Positions 1-58,904 of a DNA stretch of 64,000 bases are shown one piece after another. Source of the DNA: Eledone cirrhosa (Eukaryota); contig OZ024744.1 of the NCBI GenBank assembly GCA_964016885.1, positions 124,310,001 through 124,374,000 on the forward strand. Reading direction: 5' to 3'. The notes below the pieces were generated by a model, which made no database searches, was not told the DNA's origin, and saw only the letters and a program-made list of their open reading frames with translations. The translations under genes and the position numbers were made by a program. Numbering within the stretch: position 1 is the first letter of the stretch; every line of letters begins with the position of its first letter.

Positions 1-3000
1 CCCATGACAGGTAGGACAATAGTCTGTAATAACTTGTCCAACCCATGACAGGTAGGACAATAATCTGTAATAACTTGTCTAACCCATGACAGGTAGGACA
101 ATAGTCTGTAATAACTTGTCCAACCCATGTATGTAGGACAATAGTCTGTAATAACTTGTCCAACCCATGTATGTAGGACAATAGTCTGTAATAATAATTT
201 GTCCAACCCATGTATGTAGGACAATAGTCTGTAATAACTTGTCCAACCCATGAAAGGTAGGTCAATAGTCTGTAATAACTTGTCCAACCCATGTATGTAG
301 GACAATAGTCTGTAATAACTTGTCCAACCCATGGCATGTAGGACAATAGTCTGTAATAACTTGTCCAACCCATGACAGGTAGGACAATAGTCGGTAATAC
401 CTTGTCCAACCAATGACAGGTAGGACAATAGTCTGTAATAACTTGGCCAACCCATGTATGTAGGACAATAGTCTGTAATAACTTGTCCAACCCATGTATG
501 TAGGACAATAGTCTGTAATAACTAGTCCAAACCATGACAGGTAGGACAATAGTCTGTAATAACTTGTCCAACCCATGACAGGTAGGACAATAGTCTGTAA
601 TAACTTGTCCAACCCATGTATGTAGGACAATAGTCTGTAATAACTTGTCCAACCCATGACAGGTAGGACAATAGTGTGTAATAACTTGTCCAACCCATGA
701 CAGGTAGGACAATAGTCTGTAATAACTTGTCCAACCCATGTATGCAGGACAATAGTCTGTAATAACTTGTCCAACCCATGTATGTAGGTCAATAGCCTGT
801 AATAACTTGTCCAATCCATGACAGGTAGGACAATAGTCTGTAATAACTTGTCCAACCCATGACAAGTAGGACAATAGTCTGTAATAACTTGTCCAACCCA
901 TGTATGTAGGACAATAGTCTGTAATAACTTGTCCAACCGATGTATGTACGACAATAGTCTGTAATAACTTGCCTAACCCATGTATGTAGGACAATAGTCT
1001 GTAATAACTTGTCCAACCCATGTATGTAGGACAATAGTCTATAATAACTTTTCCAACCCATGTATGTAGGACAATAGTCTGTAATAACTTGTCCAACCCA
1101 TGACAGGTAGGACAATAGTCTGTAATACCTCGTCCAACCCATGACAGGTAGGACAATAGTCTGTAATAACTTGTCCAACCCATGACAGGTAGGACAATAG
1201 TCTGTAATAACTTGTCCAACCCATGTATGTAGGACAATAGTCTGTAATAACTTGTCCAACCCATGACAGGTAGGACAATAGTCTGTAATAACTTGTCCAA
1301 CCCATGCATGTAGGACAATAGTCTGTAATAACTTGTCCAACACATGTATGTAGGACAATAGTCTGTAATAACTTGTCCAACCCATGACAGCTAGGACAAT
1401 AGTCTGTAATAACTTGTCCAACCCATGACATATAGGACAATAGTCTGTAATAACTTGTCCAACCCATGCCAGGTAGGACAATAGTCTGTAATAACTTGTC
1501 CAACCCATGACAGGTAGGACAATAGTCTGTAATAACTTGTCCAACCCATGTATGTAGGACAATAGTCTGTAATAACTTGTCCAACCCATGACAGATAGGA
1601 CAATAGTCTGTAATAACTTTTCTAACCCATGTATGTAGGACAATAGTCTGTAATAACTTGTCCAACCCATGTATGTAGGACAATAGTCTATAATAACTTG
1701 TCCAACCCATGTATGTAGGACAATTGTCTGTAATAACTTGTCCAACCCATGACAGGTAGGACAATAGTCTGTAATACCTCGTCCAACCCATGACAGGTAG
1801 GACAATAGTCTGTAATAACTTGTCCAAGCCATGACAGGTAGGACAATAGTCTGTAATAACTTGTCCAACACATGACTGGTAGGACAATAGTCTGTAATAA
1901 CTTGTCCATCCCATGACAGGTAGGACAATAGTCTGTAATAACTTGTCCAACCCATGACAGCTAGGACAATACTCTGTAATAACTTGCCCAACCCATGTAT
2001 GTAGGACAATAGTCTGTAATAACTTGTCCAACCCATGACAGGTAGGACAATAGTCTGTAATAACTTGTCCATCCCATGACAGGTAGGACAATAGTCTGTA
2101 ATAACTTGTCGAACCCATGTATGTAGGTCAATAGTCTGTAATAAATTGTCCAACCCATGACAGGTAGGACAATAGTCTGTAATAACTTGTCCAACCCATG
2201 ACAGGTAGGACAATAATCTGTAATAACTTGTCTAACCCATGACAGGTAGGACAATAGTCTGTAATAACTTGTCCAACCCATGTATGTAGGACAATAGTCT
2301 GTAATAACTTGTCCAACCCATGTATGTAGGACAATAGTCTGTAATAATAATTTGTCCAACCCATGTATGTAGGACAATAGTCTGTAATAACTTGTCCAAC
2401 CCATGAAAGGTAGGTCAATAGTCTGTAATAACTTGTCCAACCCATGTATGTAGGACAATAGTCTGTAATAACTTGTCCAACCCATGGCATGTAGGACAAT
2501 AGTCTGTAATAACTTGTCCAACCGATGACAGGTAGGACAATAGTCGGTAATACCTTGTCCAACCAATGACAGGTAGGACAATAGTCTGTAATAACTTGGC
2601 CAACCCATGTATGTAGGACAATAGTCTGTAATAACTTGTCCAACCCATGTATGTAGGACAATAGTCTGTAATAACTAGTCCAAACCATGACAGGTAGGAC
2701 AATAGTCTGTAATAACTTGTCCAACCCATGACAGGTAGGACAATAGTCTGTAATAACTTGTCCAACCCATGTATGTAGGACAATAGTCTGTAATAACTTG
2801 TCCAACCCATGACAGGTAGGACAATAGTGTGTAATAACTTGTCCAACCCATGACAGGTAGGACAATAGTCTGTAATAACTTGTCCAACCCATGACAGATA
2901 GGACGATAGTCTGTAATAACTTGTCCAACCCATGTATGTAGGTCAATAGCCTGTAATAACTTGTCCAATCCATGACAGGTAGGACAATAGTCTGTAATAA

Positions 3001-6000
3001 CTTGTCCAACCCATGACAAGTAGGACAATAGTCTGTAATAACTTGTCCAACCCATGTATGTAGGACAATAGTCTGTAATAACTTGTCCAACCGATGTATG
3101 TACGACAATAGTCTGTAATAACTTGCCTAACCCATGTATGTAGGACAATAGTCTGTAGTAACTTGTCCAACCCATGTATGTAGGACAATAGTCTATAATA
3201 ACTTGTCCAACCCATGTATGTAGGACAATAGTCTGTAATAACTTGTCCAACCCATGACAGGTAGGACAATAGTCTGTAATACCTCGTCCAACCCATGACA
3301 GGTAGGACAATAGTCTGTAATAACTTGTCCAACCCATGACAGGTAGGACAATAGTCTGTAATAACTTGTCCAACCCATGTATGTAGGACAATAGTCTGTA
3401 ATAACTTGTCCAACCCATGACAGGTAAGACAATAGTCTGTAATAACTTGTCCAACCCATGACAGGTAGGGCAATAGTCTGTAATAACTTGTCCAACCCAT
3501 GTATGTAGGACAATAGTCTGTAATAACTTGTCCAACCCATGACAGGTAGGACAATAGTCTGTAATAACTTGTCCAGCCCATGCCAGGTAGGACAAAGTCT
3601 GTAATAACTTGTCCAACCCATGACAGGTAGGGCAATAGTCTGTAATAACTTGTCCAACCCATGACAGGTAGGACAATAGTGTGTAATAACTTGTCCAACC
3701 CATGACAGGTAGGGCAATAGTCTGTAATAACTTGTCCAACCCATGTATGCAGGACAATAGTCTGTAATAACTTGTCCATCCCATGACAGGTAGGACAATA
3801 GTCTGTAATAACTTGTCCAACCCATGCATGTAGGACAATAGTCTGTAATAACTTGTCCAACCCATGTATGTAGGACAATAGTCTGTAATAACTTGTCCAA
3901 CCTATGACAGGTAGGAAAATAGTCTGTAATAACTTGTCCATCCCATGACAGGTAGGACAATAGTCTGTAATAACTTGTCCAACCCATGACAGCTAGGACA
4001 ATAGTCTGTAATAACTTGTCGAACCCATGTATGTAGGACAATAGTCTGTAATAAATTGTCCAACCCATGACAGGTAGGACAATAGTCTGTAATAAATTGT
4101 CCAACCCATGACAGGTAGGACAATAATCTGTAATAACTTGTCTAACCCATGACAGGTAGGACAATAGTCTGTAATAACTTGTCCAACCCATGACAGGTAG
4201 GACAATAATCTGTAATAACTTGTCTAACCCATGACAGGTAGGACAATAGTCTGTAATAACTTGTCCAACCCATGTATGTAGGACAATAGTCTGTAATAAC
4301 TTGTCCAACCCATGTATGTAGGACAATAGTCTGTAATAATAATTTGTCCAACCCATGTATGTAGGACAATAGTCTGTAATAACTTGTCCAACCCATGAAA
4401 GGTAGGTCAATAGTCTGTAATAACTTGTCCAACCCATGTATGTAGGACAATAGTCTGTAATAACTTGTCCAACCCATGGCATGTAGGACAATAGTCTGTA
4501 ATAACTTGTCCAACCCATGACAGGTAGGACAATAGTCGGTAATACCTTGTCCAACCAATGACAGGTAGGACAACAGTCTGTAATAACTTGGCCAACCCAT
4601 GTATGTAGGACAATAGTCTGTAATAACTTGTCCAACCCATGTATGTAGGACAATAGTCTGTAATAACTAGTCCAAACCATGACAGGTAGGACAATAGTCT
4701 GTAATAACTTGTCCAACCCATGACAGGTAGGACAATAGTCTGTAATAACTTGTCCAACCCATGTATGTAGGACAATAGTCTGTAATAACTTGTCCAACCC
4801 ATGACAGGTAGGACAATAGTGTGTAATAACTTGTCCAACCCATGACAGGTAGGACAATAGTCTGTAATAACTTGTCCAACCCATGTATGCAGGACAATAG
4901 TCTGTAATAACTTGTCCAACCCATGTATGTAGGTCAATAGCCTGTAATAACTTGTCCAATCCATGACAGGTAGGACAATAGTCTGTAATAACTTGTCCAA
5001 CCCATGACAAGTAGGACAATAGTCTGTAATAACTTGTCCAACCCATGTATGTAGGACAATAGTCTGTAATAACTTGTCCAACCGATGTATGTACGACAAT
5101 AGTCTGTAATAACTTGCCTAACCCATGTATGTAGGACAATAGTCTGTAATAACTTGTCCAACCCATGTATGTAGGACAATAGTCTATAATAACTTTTCCA
5201 ACCCATGTATGTAGGACAATAGTCTGTAATAACTTGTCCAACCCATGACAGGTAGGACAATAGTCTGTAATACCTCGTCCAACCCATGACAGGTAGGACA
5301 ATAGTCTGTAATAACTTGTCCAACCCATGACAGGTAGGACAATAGTCTGTAATAACTTGTCCAACCCATGTATGTAGGACAATAGTCTGTAATAACTTGT
5401 CCAACCCATGACAGGTAGGACAATAGTCTGTAATAACTTGTCCAACCCATGCATGTAGGACAATAGTCTGTAATAACTTGTCCAACACATGTATGTAGGA
5501 CAATAGTCTGTAATAACTTGTCCAACCCATGACAGCTAGGACAATAGTCTGTAATAACTTGTCCAACCCATGACATATAGGACAATAGTCTGTAATAACT
5601 TGTCCAACCCATGCCAGGTAGGACAATAGTCTGTAATAACTTGTCCAACCCATGACAGGTAGGACAATAGTCTGTAATAACTTGTCCAACCCATGACAGC
5701 TAGGACAATAGTCTGTAATAACTTGTCCAACCCATGACAGGTAGGGCAATAGTCTGTAATAACTTGTCCAACCCATGACAGGTAGGACAATAGTCTGTAA
5801 TAACTTGTCCAACCCATGTATGTAGGACAATAGTCTGTAATAACTTGTCCAACCCATGACAGATAGGACAATAGTCTGTAATAACTTTTCTAACCCATGT
5901 ATGTAGGACAATAGTCTGTAATAACTTGTCCAACCCATGTATGTAGGACAATAGTCTGTAATAACTTGTCCAACCCATGTATGTCGGACAATAGTCTGTA

Positions 6001-9000
6001 ATAACTTGTCTAACCCATGTATGTAGGACAATAGTCTGTAATAACTTGTCCAACCCATGTATGTAGGACAATAGTCTATAATAACTTGTCCAACCCATGT
6101 ATGTAGGACAATTGTCTGTAATAACTTGTCCAACCCATGACAGGTAGGACAATAGTCTGTAATACCTCGTCCAACCCATGACAGGTAGGACAATAGTCTG
6201 TAATAACTTGTCCAAGCCATGACAGGTAGGACAATAGTCTGTAATAACTTGTCCAACACATGACTGGTAGGACAATAGTCTGTAATAACTTGTCCATCCC
6301 ATGACAGGTAGGACAATAGTCTGTAATAACTTGTCCAACCCATGACAGCTAGGACAATACTCTGTAATAACTTGCCCAACCCATGTATGTAGGACAATAG
6401 TCTGTAATAACTTGTCCAACCCATGACAGGTAGGACAATAGTCTGTAATAACTTGTCCATCCCATGACAGGTAGGACAATAGTCTGTAATAACTTGTCGA
6501 ACCCATGTATGTAGGACAATAGTCTGTAATAAATTGTCCAACCCATGACAGGTAGGACAATAGTCTGTAATAACTTGTCCAACCCATGACAGGTAGGACA
6601 ATAATCTGTAATAACTTGTCTAACCCATGACAGGTAGGACAATAGTCTGTAATAACTTGTCCAACCCATGTATGTAGGACAATAGTCTGTAATAACTTGT
6701 CCAACCCATGTATGTAGGACAATAGTCTGTAATAATAATTTGTCCAACCCATGTATGTAGGACAATAGTCTGTAATAACTTGTCCAACCCATGAAAGGTA
6801 GGTCAATAGTCTGTAATAACTTGTCCAACCCATGTATGTAGGACAATAGTCTGTAATAACTTGTCCAACCCATGGCATGTAGGACAATAGTCTGTAATAA
6901 CTTGTCCAACCGATGACAGGTAGGACAATAGTCGGTAATACCTTGTCCAACCAATGACAGGTAGGACAATAGTCTGTAATAACTTGGCCAACCCATGTAT
7001 GTAGGACAATAGTCTGTAATAACTTGTCCAACCCATGTATGTAGGACAATAGTCTGTAATAACTAGTCCAAACCATGACAGGTAGGACAATAGTCTGTAA
7101 TAACTTGTCCAACCCATGACAGGTAGGACAATAGTCTGTAATAACTTGTCCAACCCATGTATGTAGGACAATAGTCTGTAATAACTTGTCCAACCCATGA
7201 CAGGTAGGACAATAGTGTGTAATAACTTGTCCAACCCATGACAGGTAGGACAATAGTCTGTAATAACTTGTCCAACCCATGACAGATAGGACGATAGTCT
7301 GTAATAACTTGTCCAACCCATGTATGTAGGTCAATAGCCTGTAATAACTTGTCCAATCCATGACAGGTAGGACAATAGTCTGTAATAACTTGTCCAACCC
7401 ATGACAAGTAGGACAATAGTCTGTAATAACTTGTCCAACCCATGTATGTAGGACAATAGTCTGTAATAACTTGTCCAACCGATGTATGTACGACAATAGT
7501 CTGTAATAACTTGCCTAACCCATGTATGTAGGACAATAGTCTGTAGTAACTTGTCCAACCCATGTATGTAGGACAATAGTCTATAATAACTTGTCCAACC
7601 CATGTATGTAGGACAATAGTCTGTAATAACTTGTCCAACCCATGACAGGTAGGACAATAGTCTGTAATACCTCGTCCAACCCATGACAGGTAGGACAATA
7701 GTCTGTAATAACTTGTCCAACCCATGACAGGTAGGACAATAGTCTGTAATAACTTGTCCAACCCATGTATGTAGGACAATAGTCTGTAATAACTTGTCCA
7801 ACCCATGACAGGTAAGACAATAGTCTGTAATAACTTGTCCAACCCATGACAGGTAGGGCAATAGTCTGTAATAACTTGTCCAACCCATGTATGTAGGACA
7901 ATAGTCTGTAATAACTTGTCCAACCCATGACAGGTAGGACAATAGTCTGTAATAACTTGTCCAGCCCATGCCAGGTAGGACAAAGTCTGTAATAACTTGT
8001 CCAACCCATGACAGGTAGGGCAATAGTCTGTAATAACTTGTCCAACCCATGACAGGTAGGACAATAGTGTGTAATAACTTGTCCAACCCATGACAGGTAG
8101 GGCAATAGTCTGTAATAACTTGTCCAACCCATGTATGCAGGACAATAGTCTGTAATAACTTGTCCATCCCATGACAGGTAGGACAATAGTCTGTAATAAC
8201 TTGTCCAACCCATGCATGTAGGACAATAGTCTGTAATAACTTGTCCAACCCATGTATGTAGGACAATAGTCTGTAATAACTTGTCCAACCTATGACAGGT
8301 AGGAAAATAGTCTGTAATAACTTGTCCATCCCATGACAGGTAGGACAATAGTCTGTAATAACTTGTCCAACCCATGACAGCTAGGACAATAGTCTGTAAT
8401 AACTTGTCGAACCCATGTATGTAGGACAATAGTCTGTAATAAATTGTCCAACCCATGACAGGTAGGACAATAGTCTGTAATAAATTGTCCAACCCATGAC
8501 AGGTAGGACAATAATCTGTAATAACTTGTCTAACCCATGACTGGTAGGACAATAGTCTGTAATAATTTGTCCAACCCATGTATGTAGGACAATAGTCTGT
8601 AATAACTTGTCCAACCCATGAAAGGTAGGTCAATAGTCTGTAATAACTTGTCCAACCCATGTATGTAGGACAATAGTCTGTAATAACTTGTCCAACCCAT
8701 GTATGTAGGACAATAGTCTGTAATAACTTGTCCAAACCATGACAGGTAGGACAATAGTCTGTAATAACTTGTCCAACCTATGACAGGTAGGACAATAGTC
8801 TGTAATAACTTGTCCAACCCATGACAGGTAGGACAATAGTCTGTAATAACTTGTCCAACCCATGACAGGTAAGACAATATTCTGTAATAACTTGTCCAAC
8901 CCATGTATGTAAGACAATAGTGTGTAATAACTTGTCCAACCCAATTCAGGTAGGACAATAGTCTAATAACTTGTCCAACTCATGACAGGTAGGACGATAG

Positions 9001-12000
9001 TCTGTAATAACTTGTCCAACCCATGTATTTAGGACAATAGTCTGTAATAACTTGTCCAAACCATGACAGGTAGGACAATAGTCTGTAATAACTTGTCCAA
9101 GCCATGACAGGTAGGACAATAGTCTGTAATAACTTGTCCAACACATGACTGGTAGGACAATAGTCTGTAATAACTTGTCCAACCCATGACAGCTAGGACA
9201 ATACTCTGTAATAACTTGCCCAACCCATGTATGTAGGACAATAGTCTGTAATAACTTGTATGTAAGACAATAGTGTGTAATAACTTGTCCAACCCATGAC
9301 AGGTAGGACAATAGTCTGTAATAACTTGTCCAACCCATGACAGGTAGGACAATAGTCTGTAATAACTTGTCCAACCCATGACAGGTAGGACAATAGTCTG
9401 TAATAACTTGTCCAACCCATGACAGGTAAGACAATATTCTGTAATAACTTGTCCAACCCATGTATGTAAGACAATAGTGTGTAATAACTTGTCCAACCCA
9501 ATTCAGGTAGGACAATAGTCTGTAATAACTTGTCCAACCCATGACAGGTAGGACAATAGTCGGTAATACCTTGTCCAACCAATGACAGGTAGGACAATAG
9601 TCTGTAATAACTTGGCCAACCCATGTATGTAGGACAATAGTCTGTAATAACTTGTCCAACCCATGTATGTAGGACAATAGTCTGTAATAACTAGTCCAAA
9701 CCATGACAGGTAGGACAATAGTCGGTAATACCTTGTCCAACCAATGACAGGTAGGAGAACAGTCTGTAATAACTTCTCCAACCCATAACAGGTAGGACAA
9801 TAGTCTGTAATACCTTGTCCAACCAATGACAGGTAGGACAATAGTCTGTAATAACTTGTCCAACCCATGTATATAGGACAATAGTCTGTAATAACTTGTC
9901 CAACCCATGTATGTAGGACAATAGTCTGTAATAACTTGTCCAAACCATGACAGGTAGGACAATAGTCTGTAATAACTTGTCCAACCCATGACAGGTAGGA
10001 CAATAGTCTGTAATAACTTGTCCAACCCATGACAGATAGGACGATAGTCTGTAATAACTTGTCCAACCCATGTATGTAGGTCAATAGCCTGTAATAACTT
10101 GTCCAATCCATGACAGGTAGGACAATAGTCTGTAATAACTTGTCCAACCCATGACAAGTAGGACAATAGTCTGTAATAACTTGTCCAACCCATGACAGAT
10201 AGGACGATAGTCTGTAATAACTTGTCCAACCCATGTATGTAGGTCAATAGCCTGTAATAACTTGTCCAATCCATGAAAGGTAGGTCAATAGTCTGTAATA
10301 ACTTGTCCAACCCATGTATGTAGGACAATAGTCTGTAATAACTTGTCCAACCCATGTATGTAGGACAATAGTCTGTAATAACTTGTCCAAACCATGACAG
10401 GTAGGACAATAGTCTGTAATAACTTGTCCAATCCATGACAGGTAGGACAATAGTCTGTAATAACTTGTCCAACCCATGACAAGTAGGACAATAGTCTGTA
10501 ATAACTTGTCCAACCCATGTATGTAGGACAATAGTCTGTAATAACTTGTCCAACCGATGTATGTACGACAATAGTCTGTAATAACTTGTCCAACCCATGT
10601 ATGTAGGACAATAGTCTATAATAACTTGTCCAACCCATGTATGTAGGACAATAGTCTGTAATAACTTGTCCAACCCATGACAGGTAGGACAATAGTCTGT
10701 AATAACTTGTCCAACCCATGTATGTAGGACAATAGTCTGTAATAACTTGTCCAACCCATGACAGGTAGGACAATAGTCTGTAATAACTTGTCCAACCCAT
10801 GTATGTAGGACAATAGTCTGTAATAACTTGTCCAACCCATGTATGTAGGACAATAGTCTGTAATAACTTGTGCAACCCATGACAGGTAGGACAATAGTCT
10901 GTAATAACTTGTCCAACCCATGTATGTAGGACAATTGTCTGTAATAACTTGTCCAACCCATGACAGGTAGGACAATAGTCTGTAATAACTTGTCCAACCC
11001 ATGTATGTAGGACAATAGTCTGTAATAACTTGTCCAACCCATGACAGGTAGGACAATAGTCTGTAATAACTTGTCCAACCCATGTATGCAGGACAATAGT
11101 CTGTAATAACTTATCCAACCCATGACAGGTAGGACAATAGTCTGTAATAACTTGTCCAAGCCATGAGAGGTAGGGCAATAGTCTGTAATAACTTGTCCAA
11201 CCAATGTATGTAGGACAATAGTCTGTAATAACTTGCCCAAACCATGACAGGTAGGACAATAGTCTGTAATAACTTGTCCAACCCATGCATGTCGGACAAT
11301 AGTCTGTAATAACTTGTCCAACCCATGTATGTAGGACAGTAGTCTGTAATAACTTGTCCAACCCATGACAGGTAGGACAATAGTCTGTAATAACTTGTCC
11401 ATCCCATGACAGGTAGGACAATAGTCTGTAATAACTTGTCCAACCCATGACAGCTAGGACAATAGTCTGTAATAACTTGTCCAACCCATGACAGCTAGGA
11501 CAATAGTCTGTAATAACTTGTCCAACCCATGACATGTAGGACAATAGTCTGTAATAACTTGTCCAACCTATGACAGGTAGGACAATAGTCTGTAATAACT
11601 TGTCCAACCCATGACATGTAGGACAATAGTCTGTAATAACTTGTCCAACCCATGACAGGTAGGACAATAGTCCGTAATAACTTGTCGAACCCATGTATGT
11701 AGTACAATAGTCTGTAATAAATTGTCCAACCCATGACGGGTAGGACAATAGTCTGTAATAACTTGTCCAACCCATGACAGGTAGTACAATAATCTGTAAT
11801 AACTTGTCTAACCCATGACAGGTAGGACAATAGTCTGTAATAACTTGTCCAACCCATGTATGTAGGACAATAGTCTGTAATAACTTGTCCAACCCATGTA
11901 TGTAGGACAATAGTCTGTAATAATAATTTGTCCAACCCATGTATGTAGGACAATAGTCTTTAATAACTTGTCCAACCCATGAAAGGTAGGTCAATAGTCT

Positions 12001-39000: not shown

Positions 39001-42000
39001 CAGGTAGGACAATAGTCTGTAATAACTTGTCCAACCCATGACAGCTAGGACAATAGTCTGTAATAACTTGTCCAACCCATGACAGGTAGGACAATAGTCT
39101 GTAATAACTTGTCTCGCCCATTACAGGTAGGACAATAGTCTGTAATAACTTGTCCAACCCATGACAGGTAGGACAATAGTGTGTAATAACTTGTCCAACC
39201 CATGACAGGTAGGACAATAGTCTGTAATAACTTGTCCAACCCATGTATGTAGGACAATAGCCTGTAATAACTTGTCCAACCCATGACAGGTAGTACAATA
39301 GTCTGTAATAACTTGTCCAACCCATGACAGGTAGGACAATAGTCTGTAATACCTTGTCCAACCAATGACAGGTAGGAAAATAGTATGTAATACCTTATCC
39401 AACCAATGACAGGTAGGACAATAGTCTGTAATAACTTGTCCAACCCATGTATGTAGGACAATAGTCTGTAATAACTTGCCCAACGCATGTATGTAGGACA
39501 ATAGTGTGTAATAACTTGTCCAACCCATGACAGGTAGGACAATTGTCTGTAATAACTTGTCCAACCCATGTATGTAGGACAATAGTCTGTAATAACTTGT
39601 CCAACCTATGACAGGTAGGACAATAGTCTGTAATTACTTGCCCAACCCATGACAGGTTGGACAATAGTCGGTAATAACTTGCCCAACGCATGTATGTAGG
39701 ACAATAGTGTGTAATAACTTGTCCAACCCATGACAGGTAGGACAATAGTCTGTAATAACTTGTCCAACCCATGTATGTAGGACAATAGTCTGTAATAACT
39801 TGTCCAACCCATGACAGGTAGGACAATAGTCTGTAATAACTTGTCCAACCCATGACAGGTAGGACAATAGTCTGTAATAACTTGTCCAACCCATGTATGT
39901 AGGACAATAGTGTGTAATAACTTGTCCAACACATGACAGCTAGGACAATAGTGTGTAATAACTTGTCCAACCCATGTATGTAGGACAATAGTCTATAATA
40001 ACTTGTCCAACCCATGTATGTAGGACAATAGTCTGTAATAACTGGTCCAACCCATGTATGTACGACAATAGTGTGTAATAACTTGTCCATCCCATGACAA
40101 GTAGGACAATAGTCTGTAATACCTTATCCAACCAATGACAGGTAGGAAAATAGTCTGTAATAACTTGTCCAACCCATGACAGGTAGGACAATAGTCTGTA
40201 ATACCTTGTCCAACCAATGACAGGTAGGACAATAGTCTGTAATAACTTGTCCAACCCATGACAGGTTGGACAATAGTCTGTAATAACTTGTCCAACCTAT
40301 GACAGGTAGGACAATAGTCTGTAATAACTTGTCCAACCCATATATGTAGGAGAATACTCTGTAATAACTTGTCCAACCCATGACAGGTAGTACAATAGTC
40401 TGTAATAACTTTTCCAACCCATGACAGGTAGGACAATAGTCTGTAAAAACGTGTCCAACCCATGACAGATAGGACAATAGTCTGTAATAACTTGTCCAAC
40501 CCATGTATGTAGGACAATAGTCTGTAATAACTTGTCCAACCCACGTATGTACGACAATAGTGTGTAATAACTTGTCCAACCCATGTATGTAGGACAATAG
40601 TCTGTAATAACTTGTCCAACCTATGACAGGTAGGACAATAGTCTGTAATAACTTGTCCAACCCATGACAGGTAGGACAATACTCTGTAATAACTTGTCCA
40701 ACCCATGTATGTAGGACAATAGTTTGTAATAACTTGTCCAACCCATGACAGGTAGGACAATAGTCTGTAATAACTTGTCCAACCCATGCATGTGGGACAA
40801 TAGTCTGTAATAACTTTTCCAACCCATGTATGTAGGACGATAGTCTGTAATAAGTTGTCCAACCCATGACAGGTAGGACAATAGTCTGTAATAACTTGTC
40901 CAACCCATGTATGTAGGACAATAGTTTGTAATAACTTGTCCAACCCATGACAGGTAGGACAATAGTCTGTAATAACTTGTCCAACCCATGTATGTAGGAC
41001 AATAGTCTGTAATAACTTGTCCAACCCATGTATGTAGGACAATAGTCTGTAATAACTTGTCCTACCCATGTATGTAGGACAATAGTCTGTAATAACTTGT
41101 CCAACCCATGTATGTAGGACAATAGTCTGTAATAACCTGTCCAACCCATGACAGGTAGGACAATAGTCTGTAATAGCTTGTCCAACCCATGACAGGTAAG
41201 ACAATAGTCTGTAATAACTTGTCCAACCCATGACAGGTAGGACAATAGTCTGTAATAACTTGTCCAACCCGTGACAGGTAGAACAATAGTCTATAATAAT
41301 TTGTCCAACCCATGACAGGTAGGACAATAGTCTGTAATAAATTGTTCAACCCATGTATGTAGGACAATAGGCTGTAATAACTTGTCCAACCCATGTATGT
41401 ACGACAATAGTCTGTAATAACTTGTCCAACCCATGTATGTAGGACAATAGTCTCTAATAACTTGTCCAACCCATGACAGGTAGGACAATACTCTGTAATA
41501 ACATGTCCAACCCATGACAGGTAGGACAATAGTCTGTAATAACTTGTCCAACCCATGACAGGTAGGACAATAGTCTGTAATAACTTGTCCAACCCATGTA
41601 TGTAGGACAATAGTCTGTAATAACTTGTCCAACCCATGTATGTAGGACAATAGTCTGTAATAACTTGTCCAACCCATGTATGTAGGACAATAGTCTGTAA
41701 TAACTTGTCCAACCCATGTATGTAGGACGATAGTCTGTAATAACTTGTCCAACCCATGACAGGTAGGACAATAGTCTGTAATAACTTGTCCAACCCATGT
41801 ATGTAGGACAATAGTTTGAATAACTTGTCCAACCCATGACAGGTAGGACAATAGTCTGTAATAACTTGTCCAACCCATGTATGTAGGACAATAGTCTGTA
41901 ATAACTTGTCCAACCCATGTATGTAGGACAATAGTCTGTAATAACCTGTCCAACCCATGACAGGTAGGACAATAGTCTGTAATAACTTGTCCAACTCATG

Positions 42001-45000
42001 ACAGGTAGGACAATAGTCTGTAATAGCTTGTCCAACCCATGACAGGTAAGACAATAGTCTGTAATAACTTATCCAACCCATGCCAGGTAGGACAATAGTC
42101 TGTAATAACTTGTCCAACCCATGTATATAGGACAATAGACTGTAATAACTTGTCCAGCCCATGTATGTAGGACAATAGTCTGTAATAACTTGTCCAACCC
42201 ATGACAGGTAGGACAATAGTCTGTAATAACTTGTCCAACCCATGTATATAGGAAAATAGACTGTAATAACTTGTCCAACCCATGACAGGTAGGACAATAG
42301 TCTGTAATACCTTGTCCAACCAATGACAGGTAGGACAATAGTCTGTAATAACTTGTCCAACCCATGACATGTTGGACAATAGTCTGTAATAACTTGTCCA
42401 ACCTATGACAGGTAGGACAATAGTCTGTAATAACTTGTCCAACCCATGTATGTAGGAGAATACTCTGTAATAACTTGTCCAACCCATGACAGGTAGTACA
42501 ATAGTCTGTAATAACTTTTCCAACCCATGACAGGTAGGACAATAGTCTGTAAAAACTTGTCCAACCCATGACAGGTAGGACAATAGTCTGTAATAACTTG
42601 TGCAACCCATGTATGTAGGACAATAGTCTGTAATAACTTGTCCAACCCATGACAGGTAGGACAATAGTCTGTAATAACTTGTCCAACCCATGTATGTAGG
42701 ACAATAGTCTGTAATAACTTGTCCAACCCACGTATGTACGACAATAGTGTGTAATAACTTGTCCGACCCATGTATGTAGGACAATAGTCTGTAATAACTT
42801 GTCCAATCCATGACAGGTAGGACAATAGTCTGTAATAACTTGTCCAACCCATGTATGTAGGACAATAGTTTGTAATAACTTGTCCAACCCATGACAGGTA
42901 GGACAATAGTCTGTAATAACTTGTCCAACCCATGTATGTAGGACAATAGTCTGTAATAACTTGTCCAACCCATGTATGTAGGACGATAGTCTGTAATAAC
43001 TTGTCCAACCCATGACAGGTAGGACAATAGTCTGTAATAACTTGTCCAACCCATGTATGTAGGACAATAGTTTGTAATAACTTGTCCAACCCATGACAGG
43101 TAGGACAATAGTCTGTAATAACTTGTCCAACCCATGTATGTAGGACAATAGTCTGTAATAACTTGTCCAACCCATGTATGTAGGACAATAGTCTGTAATA
43201 ACTTGTCCTACCCATGTATGTAGGACAATAGTCTGTAATAACTTGTCCAACCCATGTATGTAGGACAATAGTCTGTAATAACCTGTCCAACCCATGACAG
43301 GTAGGACAATAGTCTGTAATAACTTGTCCAACTCATGACAGGTAGGACAATAGTCTGTAATAGCTTGTCCAACCCATGACAGGTAAGACAATAGTCTGTA
43401 ATAACTTGTCCAACCCATGACAGGTAGGACAATAGTCTGTAATAACTTGTCCAACCCGTGACAGGTAGAACAATAGTCTGTAATAATTTGTCCAACCCAT
43501 GACAGGTAGGACAATAGTCTGTAATAAATTGTTCAACCCATGTATGTAGGACAATAGGCTGTAATAACTTGTCCAACCCATGTATGTACGACAATAGTCT
43601 GTAATAACTTGTCCAACCCATGACAGGTAGGACAATACTCTGTAATAACATGTCCAACCCATGACAGGTAGGACAATAGTCTGTAATAACTTGTCCAACC
43701 CATGTATATAGGACAATAGACGGTAATAACTTGTCCAGCCCATGTATGTAGGACAATAGTCTGTAATAACTTGTCCAACCCATGACAGGTAGGACAATAG
43801 TCTGTAATAACTTGTCCAACCCATGTATATAGGACAATAGTCTGTAATAACTAGTCCAACCCATGCCAGGTAGGACAATAGTCTGTAATAACTTGTCCAA
43901 CCCATGTATATAGGACAATAGACTGTAATAACTTGTCCAACCCATGACAGGTAGGACAATAGTCTGTAATACCTTGTCCAACCAATGACAGGTAGGACAA
44001 TAGTCTGTAATAACTTGTCCAACCCATGACAGGTTGGACAATAGTCTGTAATAACTTGTCCAACCTATGACAGGTAGGACAATAGTCTGTAATAACTTGT
44101 CCAACCCATGTATGTAGGAGAATACTCTGTAATAACTTGTCCAACCCATGACAGGTAGTACAATAGTCTGTAATAACTTTTCCAACCCATGACAGGTAGG
44201 ACAATAGTCTGTAAAAACTTGTCCAACCCATGACAGGTAGGACAATAGTCTGTAATAACTTGTGCAACCCATGTATGTAGGACAATAGTCTGTAATAACT
44301 TGTCCAACCCATGACAGGTAGGACAATAGTCTGTAATAACTTGTCCAACCCATGTATGTAGGACAATAGTCTGTAATAACTTGTCCAACCCACGTATGTA
44401 CGACAATACTGTGTAATAACTTGTCCGACCCATGTATGTAGGACAATAGTCTGTAATAACTTGTCCAACCCATGTATGTAGGACAATAGTTTGTAATAAC
44501 TTGTCCAACCCATGACAGGTAGGACAATAGTCTGTAATAACTTGTCCAACCCATGTATGTAGGACAATAGTCTGTAATAACTTGTCCAACCCATGTATGT
44601 AGGACAATAGTCTGTAATAACTTGTCCAACCCATGTCTGTAGGACAATAGTCTGTAATAACTTGTCCAACCCATGTATGTAGGACAATAGTCTGTAATAA
44701 CCTGTCCAACCCATGACAGGTAGGACAATAGTCTGTAATAACTTGTCCAACTCATGACAGGTAGGACAATAGTCTGTAATAGCTTGCCCAACCCATGACA
44801 GGTAAGACAATAGTCTGTAATAACTTGTCCAACCCATGACAGGTAGGACAATAGTCTGTAATAACTTGTCCAACCCGTGACAGGTAGGACAATAGTCTGT
44901 AATAACTTGTCCAACCCATGTATGTAGGACAATAGTTTGTAATAACTTGTCCAACCCATGACAGGTAGGACAATAGTCTGTAATAACTTGTCCAACCCAT

Positions 45001-48000
45001 GTATGTAGGACAATAGTCTGTAATAACTTGTCCAACCCATGTATGTAGGACAATAGTCTGTAATAACTTGTCCTACCCATGTATGTAGGACAATAGTCTG
45101 TAATAACTTGTCCAACCCATGTATGTAGGACAATAGTCTGTAATAACCTGTCCAACCCATGACAGGTAGGACAATAGTCTGTAATAGCTTGTCCAACCCA
45201 TGACAGGTAAGACAATAGTCTGTAATAACTTGTCCAACCCATGACAGGTAGGACAATAGTCTGTAATAACTTGTCCAACCCGTGACAGGTAGAACAATAG
45301 TCTGTAATAATTTGTCCAACCCATGACAGGTAGGACAATAGTCTGTAATAAATTGTTCAACCCATGTATGTAGGACAATAGGCTGTAATAACTTGTCCAA
45401 CCCATGTATGTACGACAATAGTCTGTAATAACTTGTCCAACCCATGTATGTAGGACAATAGTCTCTAATAACTTGTCCAACCCATGACAGGTAGGACAAT
45501 ACTCTGTAATAACATGTCCAACCCATGACAGGTAGGACAATAGTCTGTAATAACTTGTCCAACCCATGACAGGTAGGACAATAGTCTGTAATAACTTGTC
45601 CATCCCATGCCAGGTAGGATTAAAGTCTGTAATAATTTGTCCAACCCATGACAGGTAGGACAATAGTCTGTAATAACTTGTCCAACCCATGTATGTAGGA
45701 CAATAGTCTGTAATAACTTGTCCAACCCATGTATGTAGGACAATAGTCTGTAATAACTTGTCCAACCCATGTATGTAGGACAATAGTCTGTAATAACTTG
45801 TCCAACCCATGTATGTAGGACGATAGTCTGTAATAACTTGTCCAACCCATGACAGGTAGGACAATAGTCTGTAATAACTTGTCCAACCCATGTATGTAGG
45901 ACAATAGTTTGAATAACTTGTCCAACCCATGACAGGTAGGACAATAGTCTGTAATAACTTGTCCAACCCATGTATGTAGGACAATAGTCTGTAATAACTT
46001 GTCCAACCCATGTATGTAGGACAATAGTCTGTAATAACCTGTCCAACCCATGACAGGTAGGACAATAGTCTGTAATAACTTGTCCAACTCATGACAGGTA
46101 GGACAATAGTCTGTAATAGCTTGTCCAACCCATGACAGGTAAGACAATAGTCTGTAATAACTTATCCAACCCATGCCAGGTAGGACAATAGTCTGTAATA
46201 ACTTGTCCAACCCATGTATATAGGACAATAGACTGTAATAACTTGTCCAGCCCATGTATGTAGGACAATAGTCTGTAATAACTTGTCCAACCCATGACAG
46301 GTAGGACAATAGTCTGTAATAACTTGTCCAACCCATGTATATAGGAAAATAGACTGTAATAACTTGTCCAACCCATGACAGGTAGGACAATAGTCTGTAA
46401 TACCTTGTCCAACCAATGACAGGTAGGACAATAGTCTGTAATAACTTGTCCAACCCATGACAGGTTGGACAATAGTCTGTAATAACTTGTCCAACCTATG
46501 ACAGGTAGGACAATAGTCTGTAATAACTTGTCCAACCCATGTATGTAGGAGAATACTCTGTAATAACTTGTCCAACCCATGACAGGTAGTACAATAGTCT
46601 GTAATAACTTTTCCAACCCATGACAGGTAGGACAATAGTCTGTAAAAACTTGTCCAACCCATGACAGGTAGGACAATAGTCTGTAATAACTTGTGCAACC
46701 CATGTATGTAGGACAATAGTCTGTAATAACTTGTCCAACCCATGACAGGTAGGACAATAGTCTGTAATAACTTGTCCAACCCATGTATGTAGGACAATAG
46801 TCTGTAATAACTTGTCCAACCCACGTATGTACGACAATAGTGTGTAATAACTTGTCCGACCCATGTATGTAGGACAATAGTCTGTAATAACTTGTCCAAT
46901 CCATGACAGGTAGGACAATAGTCTGTAATAACTTGTCCAACCCATGTATGTAGGACAATAGTTTGTAATAACTTGTCCAACCCATGACAGGTAGGACAAT
47001 AGTCTGTAATAACTTGTCCAACCCATGTATGTAGGACAATAGTCTGTAATAACTTGTCCAACCCATGTATGTAGGACGATAGTCTGTAATAACTTGTCCA
47101 ACCCATGACAGGTAGGACAATAGTCTGTAATAACTTGTCCAACCCATGTATGTAGGACAATAGTTTGTAATAACTTGTCCAACCCATGACAGGTAGGACA
47201 ATAGTCTGTAATAACTTGTCCAACCCATGTATGTAGGACAATAGTCTGTAATAACTTGTCCAACCCATGTATGTAGGACAATAGTCTGTAATAACTTGTC
47301 CTACCCATGTATGTAGGACAATAGTCTGTAATAACTTGTCCAACCCATGTATGTAGGACAATAGTCTGTAATAACCTGTCCAACCCATGACAGGTAGGAC
47401 AATAGTCTGTAATAACTTGTCCAACTCATGACAGGTAGGACAATAGTCTGTAATAGCTTGTCCAACCCATGACAGGTAAGACAATAGTCTGTAATAACTT
47501 GTCCAACCCATGACAGGTAGGACAATAGTCTGTAATAACTTGTCCAACCCGTGACAGGTAGAACAATAGTCTGTAATAATTTGTCCAACCCATGACAGGT
47601 AGGACAATAGTCTGTAATAAATTGTTCAACCCATGTATGTAGGACAATAGGCTGTAATAACTTGTCCAACCCATGTATGTACGACAATAGTCTGTAATAA
47701 CTTGTCCAACCCATGACAGGTAGGACAATACTCTGTAATAACATGTCCAACCCATGACAGGTAGGACAATAGTCTGTAATAACTTGTCCAACCCATGTAT
47801 ATAGGACAATAGACGGTAATAACTTGTCCAGCCCATGTATGTAGGACAATAGTCTGTAATAACTTGTCCAACCCATGACAGGTAGGACAATAGTCTGTAA
47901 TAACTTGTCCAACCCATGTATATAGGACAATAGTCTGTAATAACTAGTCCAACCCATGCCAGGTAGGACAATAGTCTGTAATAACTTGTCCAACCCATGT

Positions 48001-51000
48001 ATATAGGACAATAGACTGTAATAACTTGTCCAACCCATGACAGGTAGGACAATAGTCTGTAATACCTTGTCCAACCAATGAGAGGTAGGACAATAGTCTG
48101 TAATAACTTGTCCAACCCATGACAGGTTGGACAATAGTCTGTAATAACTTGTCCAACCTATGACAGGTAGGACAATAGTCTGTAATAACTTGTCCAACCC
48201 ATGTATGTAGGAGAATACTCTGTAATAACTTGTCCAACCCATGACAGGTAGTACAATAGTCTGTAATAACTTTTCCAACCCATGACAGGTAGGACAATAG
48301 TCTGTAAAAACTTGTCCAACCCATGACAGGTAGGACAATAGTCTGTAATAACTTGTGCAACCCATGTATGTAGGACAATAGTCTGTAATAACTTGTCCAA
48401 CCCATGACAGGTAGGACAATAGTCTGTAATAACTTGTCCAACCCATGTATGTAGGACAATAGTCTGTAATAACTTGTCCAACCCACGTATGTACGACAAT
48501 ACTGTGTAATAACTTGTCCGACCCATGTATGTAGGACAATAGTCTGTAATAACTTGTCCAACCCATGTATGTAGGACAATAGTTTGTAATAACTTGTCCA
48601 ACCCATGACAGGTAGGACAATAGTCTGTAATAACTTGTCCAACCCATGTATGTAGGACAATAGTCTGTAATAACTTGTCCAACCCATGTATGTAGGACAA
48701 TAGTCTGTAATAACTTGTCCAACCCATGTCTGTAGGACAATAGTCTGTAATAACTTGTCCAACCCATGTATGTAGGACAATAGTCTGTAATAACCTGTCC
48801 AACCCATGACAGGTAGGACAATAGTCTGTAATAACTTGTCCAACTCATGACAGGTAGGACAATAGTCTGTAATAGCTTGCCCAACCCATGACAGGTAAGA
48901 CAATAGTCTGTAATAACTTGTCCAACCCATGACAGGTAGGACAATAGTCTGTAATAACTTGTCCAACCCGTGACAGGTAGAACAATAGTCTGTAATAATT
49001 TGTCCAACCCATGACTGGTAGGACAATAGTCTGTAATAATTTGTCCAACCCATGTATGTAGGTCAATAGCCTGTAATAACTTGTACAACCCATGATAGGT
49101 AGGACAATAGTCTGTAATAACTTGTCCAACCCATGACAGGTAGGTCAATAGTCTGTAATAACTTGTCCAACCCATGACAGGTAGGACAATAGTCTGTAAT
49201 AACTTGTCCAACCCATGTATGTAGGACAATAGTGTGTAATAACTTGTCCAACACATGACAGCTAGGACAATAGTGTGTAATAACTTGTCCAACCCATGTA
49301 TGTAGGACAATAGTCTATAATAACTTGTCCAACCCATGTATGTAGGACAATAGTCTGTAATAACTGGTCCAACCCATGTATGTACGACAATAGTGTGTAA
49401 TAACTTGTCCATCCCATGACAGGTAGGACAATAGTCTGTAATACCTTGTCCAACCAATGACAGGTAGGAAAATAGTCTGTAATAACTTGTCCAACCCATG
49501 ACAGGTAGGACAATAGTCTGTAATACCTTGTCCAACCAATGACAGGTAGGACAATAGTCTATAATAACTTGTCCAACCCATGACAGGTTGGACAATAGTC
49601 TGTAATAACTTGTCCAACCTATGACAGGTAGGACAATAGTCTGTAATAACTTGTCCAACCCATGTATGTAGGAGAATACTCTGTAATAACTTGTCCAACC
49701 CATGACAGGTAGTACAATAGTCTGTAATAACTTTTCCAACCCATGACAGGTAGGACAATAGTCTGTTAAAACTTGTCCAACCCATGACAGGTAGGACAAT
49801 AGTCTGTAATAACTTGTGCAACCCATGTATGTAGGACAATAGTCTGTAATAACTTGTCCAACCCATGACAGGTAGGACAATAGTCTGTAATAACTTGTCC
49901 AACCCATGTATGTAGGACAATAGTCTGTAATAACTTGTCCAACCCACGTATGTACGACAATAGTCTGTAATAACTTGTCCAACCCATGTATGTAGGACAA
50001 TAGTCTGTAATAACTTGTCCAACCTATGACAGGTAGGACAATAGTCTGTAATAACTTGTCCAACCCATGACAGGTAGGACAATAGTCTGTAATAACTTGT
50101 CCAACCCATGTATGTAGGACAATAGTTTGTAATAACTTGTCCAACCCATGACAGGTAGGACAATAGTCTGTAATAACTTGTCCAACCCATGTATGTAGGA
50201 CAGTAGTCTGTAATAACTTGTCCAACCCATGTATGTAGGACGATAGTCTGTAATAACTTGTCCAACCCATGACAGGTAGGACAATAGTCTGTAATAACTT
50301 GTCCAACCCATGTATGTAGGACAATAGTTTGTAATAACTTGTCCAACCCATGACAGGTAGGACAATAGTCTGTAATAACTTGTCCAACCCATGTATGTAG
50401 GACAATAGTCTGTAATAACTTGTCCAACCCATGTATGTAGGACAATAGTCTGTAATAACTTGTCCTACCCATGTATGTAGGACAATAGTCTGTAATAACT
50501 TGTCCAACCCATGTATGTAGGACAATAGTCTGTAATAACCTGTCCAACCCATGACAGGTAGGACAATAGTCGGTAATAACTTGTCCAACTCATGACAGGT
50601 AGGACAATAGTCTGTAATAGCTTGTCCAACCCATGACAGGTAAGACAATAGTCTGTAATAACTTGTCCAACCCATGACAGGTAGGACAATAGTCTGTAAT
50701 AACTTGTCCAACCCATGACAGGTAGAACAATAGTCTGTAATAATTTGTTCAACCCATGACAGGTAGGACAATAGTCTGTAATAAATTGTCCAACCCATGT
50801 ATGTAGGACAATAGGCTGTAATAACTTGTCCAACCCATGTATGTACGACAATAGTCTGTAATAACTTATCCAACCCATGCCAGGTAGGACAATAGTCTGT
50901 AATAACTTGTCCAACCCATGTATATAGGACAATAGTCTGTAATAACTAGTCCAACCCATGACAGGTAGGACAATAGTCTGTAATAACTTGTCCAACCCAT

Positions 51001-52533
51001 GACAGGTAGGACAATAGTCTGTAATAACTTGTCCAACCCATGCCAGGTAGGATAAAAGTCTGTAATAATTTGTCCAACCCATGACAGGTAGGACAATAGT
51101 CTGTAATAACTTGTCCAACCCATGTATGTAGGACAATAGTCTGTAATAAATTGTCCAACCCATGTATGTAGGACAATAGTCTGTAATAACTTGTCCAACC
51201 CATGACAGGTAGGACAATAGTCTGTAATAACTTGTCCAACCCATGTATGTAGGACAATAGTCTGTAATAACTTGTCCAACCCATGTATGTAGGACGATAG
51301 TCTGTAATAACTTGTCCAACCCATGTATGTAGGACAATAGTTTGAATAACTTGTCCAACCCATGACAGGTAGGACAATATTCTGTAATAACTTGTCCAAC
51401 CCATGTATGTAGGACAATAGTCTGTAATAACTTGTCCAACCCATGTATGTAGGACAATAGTCTGTAATAACCTGTCCAACCCATGACAGGTAGGACAATA
51501 GTCTGTAATAACTTGTCCAACTCATGACAGGTAGGACAATAGTCTGTAATAGCTTGTCCAACCCATGCCAGGTAGGACAATAGTCTGTAATAACTTGTCC
51601 AACCCATGTATATAGGACAATAGTCTGTAATAACTAGTCCAACCCATGACAGGTAGGACAATAGTCTGTAATAACTTGTCCAATCCATGTATATAGGACA
51701 ATAGTCTGTAATAACTTGTTCAACCCATGTATGTAGGACAATAGTCTGTAATATCTTGTCCAACCCATGACAGGTAGGACAATAGTCTGTAATAACTTGT
51801 CCAACCCATGTATGTAGGACAATAGTCTGTAATAACTTGTCCAACCCATGACAGGTAGGACAATAGTCTGTAATAACTAGTCCAACCCATGACAGGTAGG
51901 ACAATAGTCTGTAATAACTTGTCCAATCCATGTATATAGGACAATAGTCTGTAATAACTTGTCCAACCCATGTATGTAGGACAATAGTCTGTAATATCTT
52001 GTCCAACCCATGACAGGTAGGACAATAGTCTGTAATAACTTGTCCAACCCATGTATGTAGGACAATAGTCTGTAATAACTTGTCCAACCCATGACAGGTA
52101 GGACAATAGTCTGTAATAACTTGTCCAACCCATGTATGTAGGACAATAGTCTGTAATAACTTGTCCAACCCATGACAGGTAGGACAATAGTCTGTAATAA
52201 CTTGTCCAACCCATGACAGGTAGGGCAATAGTCTGTAATAACTTGTCCAACCCATGTATGTAGGACAATAGTCTGTAATAACTTGTCCAACCCATGACAG
52301 GTAGGACAATAGTCTGTAATAACTTGTCCAACCCATGACAGGTAGGACAATAGTCTGTAATAACTTGTCCAACCCATGACAGGTAGGACAATAGTCTGTA
52401 ATACATTGTCCAACCCATACCAGGTGGGACAATAGTCTGTAATAACTTGTCCATAGGTCAATAGCCTGTAATAACTTGTCCAACCCATGTATGAAGGACA
52501 ATAGTCTGTAATTACTTGTCTAGCCCATGCCAG
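1..52533. repeat. Satellite array of 40/41-bp monomers (types A and B), >52.5 kb, truncated by the left window edge; ~1,300 copies by length division
   Basis: Continuous head-to-tail copies of CCCAT[GACAGG|GTATG]TAGGACAATAGTCTGTAATAACTTGTCCAA, usually with 0-2 substitutions per unit. I saw no interrupting unique sequence. The last ~3 units (52395-52533) are more diverged. Confidence 0.99.
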
Positions 52534-52554
52534 TTTAGAAAACAATGATGATGA
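52510..52554 (+). mobile_element. Degenerate RTE-like retroelement 3' end with (GAT)n tail, fused to the last satellite unit
   Basis: ACTTGTCTAGCCCATGCCAGTTTAGAAAACAATGATGATGA parallels ...GTCTAACCCATGCTAGCATGGAA...GATGATGAT seen at 60115-60160 (+) and as the reverse complement at 54225-54290. Confidence 0.55.
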
Positions 52555-52590
52555 CATGTTTGTAATGAAAATGGTGATATTATTTGACAG

Positions 52591-52647
52591 GTCTTCCGGA
52601 AGCTTTTCTCTCTTGGAATGAGTGAATTAACCGAAGAGAAATTAATT
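52591..52647 (+). CDS. PIK3R4: Internal coding exon (57 nt, phase 0-0) of phosphoinositide 3-kinase regulatory subunit 4 / Vps15: VFRKLFSLGMSELTEEKLI
   Basis: tatttgacAG acceptor and GTAAGT donor. The peptide resembles recalled human PIK3R4 LLKKLLSQGMTEEEEDKLL and continues in phase into the downstream exons. Confidence 0.85.
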
Positions 52648-57024: not shown

Positions 57025-57068
57025 GCTATGAAAGATTTCATATTAAAACTCAACAGATCTCGCTCCAG
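57025..57068 (+). CDS. PIK3R4: Internal coding exon (44 nt, phase 0-2) of PIK3R4/Vps15: AMKDFILKLNRSRS(S)
   Basis: ctttcttctttAG acceptor and CAG|GTAAGT donor. Resembles recalled human ALKDFMMKSNKAK. Confidence 0.88.
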
Positions 57069-58389: not shown

Positions 58390-58539
58390 CTCTGTTGAAG
58401 CTGTATTTGCTGAAATAGATGATGAATGTTCACGTGGGAAACTAAATCTTCGTCATCTTGGTAACACATTTACCCGAAGACATGCTGATCTCTTCAAACC
58501 TAAAGATACCAGAACAGAAACACCAAACTCACCGGCACG
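58390..58539 (+). CDS. PIK3R4: Internal coding exon (150 nt, phase 2-2) of PIK3R4/Vps15: SVEAVFAEIDDECSRGKLNLRHLGNTFTRRHADLFKPKDTRTETPNSPA(R)
   Basis: acttgtAG acceptor and GTATGT donor. The phase fits both neighbours. GKLNLRHLG..RHADLFK resembles recalled human GVIDLAALG..RQVDLVK. Confidence 0.85.
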
Positions 58540-58730: not shown

Positions 58731-58781
58731 TGGTCAACATCTATTTTCCATGTTAGCATGAGTTAGACAAGTTGTCCCATG
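58722..58781 (-). mobile_element. RTE-like 3' end remnant
   Basis: CATCATCAC..TTTTCCATGTTAGCATGAGTTAGACAAGTTGTCCC is similar to 54225-54290. Confidence 0.6.
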
Positions 58782-58789
58782 TGAGACAA

Positions 58790-58904
58790 AAAGTGGTCAT
58801 GTAGGTGTCACAACAAAAAGTACCCAGTCCACACTGTAAAGTGGTCATGTAGGTGTCACAACAAAAAGTACCCAGTACACACTCTAAAGTGGTCATGTAA
58901 GTGT
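58790..58904. repeat. 48-bp minisatellite, ~2.4 copies
   Basis: AAAGTGGTCATGTAGGTGTCACAACAAAAAGTACCCAGTCCACACTGT, with units starting at 58790, 58838 and 58886. Confidence 0.9.

Follow-up and report, generated by a model that had tools for sequence, protein, structure and literature searches.

A 41-bp satellite in a 420-kb PIK3R4 intron of Eledone cirrhosa carries thousands of splice-site-like junctions that are probably inert decoys

Ratchet points in very long Drosophila introns are juxtaposed YAG/GT sites (a slash marks a splice junction throughout), and the donor rebuilt at such a point must beat the cryptic exon's own donor; when it is weakened, the cryptic exon is included (PMC8605326). 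Satellite DNA is known to fill introns of hundreds of kilobases in the Drosophila Y genes kl-3 and kl-5 (PMC11207136, PMC12965833). In this paper we analysed a 64,000-nt stretch of the cephalopod Eledone cirrhosa, called the window (contig OZ024744.1, here C28:124,310,001-124,374,000, with window positions counted from its first letter), which opens with a tandem array of 41- and 40-bp units in a giant intron of PIK3R4. An earlier note had proposed that hundreds of AG/GT sites in this array could allow stepwise removal of the intron, or must be actively silenced. We consider it likely, at a probability of roughly three in four, that the approximately 5,900 AG/GT sites of the whole intron are inert decoys, amplified from one founding monomer and passed over by the spliceosome.

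An exon lying upstream has its match among solved structures in PIK3R4/VPS15, and over 45 aa it is identical to the Octopus bimaculoides protein P0001. By aligning P0001 to the genomic DNA we placed the exons and fixed 28 introns, leaving two junctions out of the set (about aa 410-456 and 1059-1087), and weight matrices for donors and acceptors were built from these 28 introns of this one gene. The gene extends over ~123.57-124.50 Mb, about 930 kb. Its giant intron lies between aa 753 and 754 and measures 420,733 nt (C28:123,941,858-124,362,590), from the donor CCA/GTAAGT at 123,941,858 to the acceptor at window position 52590. The features on which the argument rests are the following, in window positions.

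1 to 52533, plus strand: 3' end (52.5 kb) of the 41/40-bp tandem array in the PIK3R4 intron, from unit counts and intron mapping.
52301 to 52341, plus strand: a consensus A unit, read from GTAGGA to AG.
3421 to 3429, plus strand: the stronger donor variant CAG/GTAAGA.
52534 to 52590, plus strand: unique sequence, the last 57 nt of the giant intron, which holds the true acceptor TTATTTGACAG, at 7.4 bits among the weaker real acceptors.
52591 to 52647, plus strand: PIK3R4 exon, about aa 754-772, joined to the next exon in the sequencing run X1 described below.

The array makes up more than 99% of the intron and consists of 10,311 units (6,409 of 41 nt, 3,713 of 40 nt and 189 others, with no N), which diverge from their consensus by 2.8% on average (9,896 units). 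Positions 1-52533 of the window hold 1,293 of them: 753 of 41 nt, 518 of 40 nt and 22 of other lengths. In this part rare unit variants recur at 22, 41, 47, 48, 53, 60, 68 and 225 units, showing irregular higher-order repeats. The consensus A unit has GT at positions 1-2, an in-frame TAG at 10-12, TAATAAC at 17-23, a T-poor tract and CAG at 39-41. The only long interruption in 420 kb, of 1.2 kb, follows the first one and a half units (L043:2276-3445, where L043:1681-1857 is C28:123,941,681-857); it is a reversed fragment resembling an element of the second gene copy described below, which by eye is of the LINE type.

The motifs that had been reported are exact in sequence and position: CAG/GTAGGA, the variant CAG/GTAAGA at 3421 and 7809, and TAATAAC with its branch-like A about 19 nt before the AG. 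There are 630 AG/GT junctions in positions 1-52533, and the window contains CAGGTAGGA 541 times, CAGGTAAGA 17 times (including 3421 and 7809), CATGTATGT 440 times and TAATAAC 1,157 times, while the opposite strand of the window has 0 copies of each. The exact 31-mer of the full junction context occurs 261 times in the window, and CAGGTAAG occurs 467 times in the whole intron. Donors of at least 7 bits number about 20 per kb of array. That the motif stands before each A unit was an overstatement of a common arrangement, for branch A, AG and GT are all intact in 4,960 of the 6,402 A-context records of the whole intron. The intron has 5,462 YAGGTR sites on its sense strand, so that the core of a ratchet point is present in a long intron in the right orientation. 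A comparison with the antisense strand, which had been proposed, gives 5,932 AG/GT sites against 512, with sites about 70 nt apart. Behind both the bias and the hundreds of copies stands a single event, repeated; the motif counts are large because a single monomer was copied many times.

Sequencing data came from four contig sets of one study, of which run X1 was classed as spliced RNA by its behaviour. The exons flanking the giant intron are intact and spliced. One X1 contig starts at 52591 and runs on into the exon at 57025, which confirms the predicted acceptor TGACAG/GT at 52585-52592 as real; it has 8 nt in common with the A unit. The X1 contig over the upstream exon leaves the genome after the donor's G and T, and fits the GTC of the next exon rather than GTAGGA. 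No fork into monomer sequence was found at the end of the upstream exon in this single X1 contig, at a word depth of 10-24 and in contigs that drop rare forms. At that point X1 thus shows no abundant exon-to-monomer form.

The same contigs carry a second signal. The X1 contig over the upstream exon is 236 nt long, made up of 30 + 177 + 29 nt, at a depth of 10.2. Downstream, a contig of depth 24 begins a single base ahead of its exon; with 31-letter words this geometry has the shape of a bubble. A direct join between the exon ending CAAAAA (C28:123,938,389) and the exon at 52591 would be an in-frame skip of aa 695-753 and explains both contig ends. The 177-nt exon upstream of the array (C28:123,941,681-857) is therefore probably skipped in part of the transcripts (by the depths of 10.2 and 24, a sizeable part), as judged from contig ends, for which other paths are possible, and with depth being a poor measure of the share. 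None of 12 homologous proteins lacks aa 695-753.

In its donor half the monomer equals the real donors of the species. CAG/GTAGGA scores 7.0 bits, within the 2.6-12.9 of the real donors, CAT/GTATGT of the B units 7.8 bits and CAG/GTAAGA 10.5 bits; the B-unit hexamer was correctly identified as that of the real donor at 58540 (ACG/GTATGT). The acceptor half is poor. At 4.1 bits it is exceeded by 27 of the 28 real acceptors (leave-one-out scores 1.3-19.0) and equalled by 5.7% of 5,122 ordinary intronic AGs. None of the 5,932 AG/GT sites in the whole intron reaches the median of the real acceptors, 29 reach the 7.4 bits of the true acceptor, and none pairs an acceptor of at least 7.4 bits with a rebuilt donor of at least 6.8 bits. 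The difference lies in the tract: most array sites have 4 T's at positions -20 to -5, against 6-14 in all 28 real acceptors, and only 75 of 5,932 have at least 6. The caution in the earlier note that the pyrimidine tract is weak and the likeness possibly coincidental was well placed. The published minimal ratchet motif Y5-N0-4-YAGGT occurs at 78 sites in the intron and 0 in the window, but its Y5 part is found in only 12 of the 28 real acceptors and is therefore a weak guide here. TAATAAC has the distance expected of a branch point, with its branch-like A 19 nt before the G of an AG that is the first one downstream, although as a sequence match only. Taking the yeast consensus as the branch heptamer, 173 of 5,081 decoy AGs have a match as good as the monomer's, so this heptamer does not mark real acceptors in this gene.

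Competition between donors gives a second reason to doubt stepwise removal. A ratchet step would rebuild a donor with the end of the upstream exon, giving CCA/GTAGGA and not CAG/GTAGGA. With our matrix this donor scores 3.5 bits and the CAG/GTAGGA of the next monomer 7.0 bits; pairing with the U1 sequence gives -4.2 kcal/mol for the first and -10.7 kcal/mol for the second. When sites with an acceptor of at least 4 bits (n=3,995) were compared with all donors 30-130 nt downstream, the rebuilt donor won at 7 and lost at 3,988. Ratcheting should fail here, because the rebuilt donor loses to that of the next monomer, and such a loss in flies gives cryptic-exon inclusion. The included piece reads GTA GGA CAA TAG in frame, and an in-frame stop lies within 39 nt at 3,731 of the 3,995 sites. 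From these scores, a monomer that captured the exon donor would insert a 41-nt poison exon with a stop, and we compute that half of the transcripts escape only if capture per site stays below about 1.7 in 10,000.

Other arrays in the gene serve as controls. A 48-bp satellite, unrelated to the 41-bp unit, fills the preceding intron (115,647 nt); in its 110 kb there are 0 sites of monomer grade, and 3 YAGGTR against the 5,462 of the 41-bp intron. As this sibling intron is without any, such sites are not needed for the removal of giant introns here. A second 48-bp array (65.5 kb sampled) has 37 sense and 1,175 antisense AG/GT, and a 90-bp array (12.5 kb scored) has 0 on the sense strand and 10.5 per kb on the antisense strand, the exact intron limits of these two arrays not being fixed. 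Monomers with AG/GT thus fall on either strand.

These satellites occupy other PIK3R4 introns at C28:123,823,963-123,933,812 (48 bp), 124,384,500-124,470,000 (48 bp) and 123,608,000-123,663,000 (83-90 bp), and small 57- and 64-bp arrays also occur in the gene. Directly after the first 48-bp array lies unique sequence (C28:123,933,850-123,934,700) that to the eye resembles the beginning of a retroelement.

Variation among the copies was studied in the 6,241 of 6,409 A units that lie within 6 changes of the consensus. The branch A is changed in 8.3% of copies, the G of AG in 7.5% and the G of GT in 8.2%, making them the 1st, 4th and 3rd most variable of the 41 positions, where the median is 2.3%; the other two splice-site bases, A in AG at 0.7% and T in GT at 2.6%, show no such rise. 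In a class-matched permutation the five essential residues are no more conserved among copies than others (P 0.62-0.91), and the broken second copy behaves in the same way. We also considered that splice-like residues are being purged, as the ranks are striking, and rejected this because P was 0.09-0.38 after matching of substitution classes. The change of G41 to T is partly an A/B hybrid. A difference in branch-A changes between A context (8.1%) and B context (0.4%) was not counted, being mostly one amplified allele that recurs in the second copy. With thousands of redundant copies the conservation test is weak: it takes away support from a splicing function and is no refutation of it.

To ask how unusual one such monomer is, we scored it against shuffled monomers, a comparison which the earlier note had called for. 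Base-shuffled monomers contain AGGT in 12.6% of cases and score as well as the real one in 0.12%; YAG/GTR with a 6/7 branch match is found in 0.2%. When natural intronic 35-50-mers were made into tandems, the monomer's summed score was equalled by 0.65% of them, both of its part scores by 0.24% and the branch criterion by 0.03-0.12%. The splice-site likeness per monomer is uncommon but not extreme, and partly real. Since at least six unrelated arrays exist in this gene alone, we would expect, by extrapolation rather than from a count, a few such monomers per genome by chance.

The 41-bp family is private to this locus and the second gene copy: an exact 37-mer of the unit occurs genome-wide in 4,029 forward copies, which fit the array length, and 329 reverse copies, all of them in the second gene copy. 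A stretch made up of the unit's 3' half and the beginning of the following unit can be aligned to a dispersed repeat, in which CTAG, CAAG or CCAG gives the position of the AG. Exact copies of one 21-mer from this repeat number 3,625 forward and 3,698 reverse in the genome. Copies in the window are:

58742 to 58790, minus strand: dispersed-repeat copy like the monomer 3' half and next unit start, of the likely source family.
Near 54252-54300, minus strand: another dispersed-repeat copy.
Near 59088-59136, minus strand: another dispersed-repeat copy.
Near 60098-60146, plus strand: another dispersed-repeat copy.

The AG-bearing 3' half of the monomer thus probably derives from a degenerate copy of this common repeat, and tandem expansion would then have copied a chance AG/GT junction. 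If the real acceptors of the gene are marked by their T-rich tract, a monomer without one would be ignored. Folding could contribute. About 20 nt before the array begins stands a 10-mer whose exact reverse complement is GTAGGACAAT; this makes the unit partly self-complementary, and in the inverted repeat inside the unit the donor-like part pairs with the tract at 9 of 10 positions. The donor hexamer has a predicted unpaired probability of 0.18, against a real-donor median of 0.40, and its pairing with the tract may aid non-use. The true donor would then be joined directly to the true acceptor across the array. Strong RNA structure as the whole explanation was rejected, as the folding effect is modest (z of only -1.39 against shuffles). 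Active silencing, which had been offered as the alternative to stepwise removal, is not needed, for the T-poor tract and a modest predicted donor-tract pairing may be enough.

Several observations weigh against the sites being inert. All 9 nt of the monomer's CAG/GTAGGA recur in a real PIK3R4 donor at 123,601,963, one real acceptor (1.3 bits) scores below the monomer's, and the monomer's heptamer (6/7 to the yeast consensus) is better than that at 27 of the 28 real acceptors. The 8 contiguous nt in common with the true acceptor, itself weak at 7.4 bits, exceed the 2-6 nt of the other 27 real acceptors; we treat this identity as a post hoc coincidence, and it is unexplained. By the null used, the monomer lies in the top 0.03-0.65% of control monomers. 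The commonest variant in A context, G4 to A (7.2%), strengthens the donor. The folding argument is weakened by that z value, by the 3-4 of 28 real donors that are as occluded as the monomer donor, and by a monomer tract that at 15 C is no more paired than real tracts. Finally, the depth of X1 and its loss of rare forms leave room for splicing intermediates.

The alternative which survives best, although we regard it as unlikely, is nested splicing: a monomer donor (CAG/GTAGGA or CAG/GTAAGA) would be joined to a later monomer AG, removing n x 41 nt and rebuilding the same site without a trace in the mRNA. Here the rebuilt junction keeps its CAG and stays at 7.0-10.5 bits, and the density of strong donors and the good branch geometry would suit such a process. 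Dual-specific AGGT tandem sites splice stochastically in human UBC (PMC10809524), and stochastic recursive splicing has been described in human introns (PMC10156609). However, it needs a monomer acceptor to be recognised, which should then also capture the exon donor and give a poison exon, and it must account for an AG, GT and branch A that are not conserved among copies and for a sibling giant intron without sites. A satellite that acts as self-excising filler, in which each monomer is dual-specific and the 420-kb nascent intron is cut down by nested splicing, is improbable to the same degree.

More doubtful still is that the sites are competent and repressed by protein or structure on the repeat RNA, with the array disturbing splicing of the neighbouring exon. 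The X1 contig geometry agrees with in-frame skipping of the 177-nt exon that lies just before the array, no skip-like form occurs in the 12 homologous proteins, and the length of a variable number tandem repeat (VNTR) in ABCA7 raises skipping of the adjacent exon (PMC5954066). But the skip is deduced from contig ends in one run and is not tied to the array, site-destroying variants show no significant purging, and weak tracts account for non-use with no repressor. We regard as very improbable a true 5'-to-3' ratchet, from the upstream exon to a monomer AG and on by reuse of the rebuilt donor up to the true acceptor: the sense bias speaks for it, long introns carry an excess of ratchet sites in the invertebrates studied (PMC2773006) and recursive splicing has been suggested, not demonstrated, for satellite-filled Drosophila Y introns (PMC12965833), but the bias is one monomer repeated, the rebuilt donor is weak and loses almost everywhere in the very way that in flies leads to cryptic-exon inclusion (PMC8605326), the sibling giant intron has no sites, and fly points are highly conserved (PMC8605326) with nearly all segments above 1 kb (PMC6110457), whereas the sites here are variable and about 70 nt apart.

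Downstream of the array the window contains four further exons.

57025 to 57068, plus strand: PIK3R4 exon, about aa 773-787.
58390 to 58539, plus strand: PIK3R4 exon, about aa 787-837, with the donor ACG/GTATGT at 58540.
60222 to 60270, plus strand: PIK3R4 exon, about aa 837-853.
63691 to 63901, plus strand: PIK3R4 exon, about aa 854-924.

Window positions 60341-60395 have a good-looking acceptor and a short open stretch outside the protein alignment, in which 60270 joins 63691; this is either a pseudo-exon or a minor alternative exon. The second, inverted gene copy (C28:135.44-135.99 Mb, minus strand) is 99.2% identical, with only 44 kb of 41-bp array. It is without the exons for aa 649-753 and has a 2-nt frameshift in the exon for aa 987-1031, making it a broken duplicate or a retained second haplotype; depths in the DNA-like runs, which might separate the two, were noisy. 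Where its two exons are missing, C28:135,610,716-135,612,250 holds about 3.8 tandem copies of a 405-bp unit. This unit forms short arrays on at least 12 scaffolds, many more than 95% identical and often with the same end position (at least 195 matches), and is likely a young mobile element with internal tandem repeats.

If the sites are inert decoys, as we favour, the intron is a natural stress test of splice-site choice, in which some 5,900 AG/GT sites of a housekeeping gene are passed over despite their proven donor 9-mer and a branch-like heptamer close to perfect, which suggests that in this animal the T-rich tract decides. Nested splicing, were it true instead, would account for the tolerance of satellites in introns, and a self-excising satellite could grow to hundreds of kilobases in an essential gene at little cost. 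Such a satellite would be the first to encode splice sites, and with it recursive or nested splicing would for the first time be shown in a cephalopod. The literature searched, which covered few subscription journals, held no report of recursive splicing in cephalopods or of this locus, and with the same coverage gave nothing on this locus for octopus intron satellites. The test is cheap, as the predicted lariat read, a branch A directly followed by a unit start, has 0 copies in the genomic intron. Saw-tooth coverage would be a poor test here because only 22% of 150-mers are unique within the intron.

In how it works, the array is like a satellite-filled giant intron that carries many pseudo splice sites: it is head-to-tail, makes up most of an intron of more than 100 kb and lies in an expressed, intact gene. 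In this it resembles kl-3 and kl-5, whose introns are likewise satellite-filled in coding genes (PMC11207136, PMC12965833). Unlike them, PIK3R4 is a housekeeping gene, lies on an ordinary scaffold and has unrelated arrays private to the locus in several different introns, and the parts of those papers available to us do not describe a splice-site-like monomer. With the Drosophila ratchet points of Ubx, kuz and Bx (PMC8605326, PMC6110457) it has in common the juxtaposed YAG/GT in a very long intron, the branch geometry, and a short cryptic exon with a second donor that is out of frame or has a stop. The fly sites are few, strong and conserved, with a donor that beats the downstream one, whereas here thousands of near-identical copies combine a weak acceptor with a weaker rebuilt donor and show no conservation among copies. 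The dual-specific sites of human UBC and VCX3A (PMC10809524) also have an AGGT core at the same place in each unit and could remove whole units, but the UBC repeats are coding and their use is seen in RNA, while the 41-nt units here are intronic and known from sequence. Should the sites be used at all, the UBC array is the closest system known to work. The VNTR of ABCA7 intron 18 (PMC5954066) likewise is an intronic unit with a donor-like site whose neighbouring exon is skipped. Its unit is 25 bp, its length at most about 10 kb, and it begins at a real donor with the downstream exon skipped; here the array spans 420 kb and the exon that is likely skipped lies upstream.

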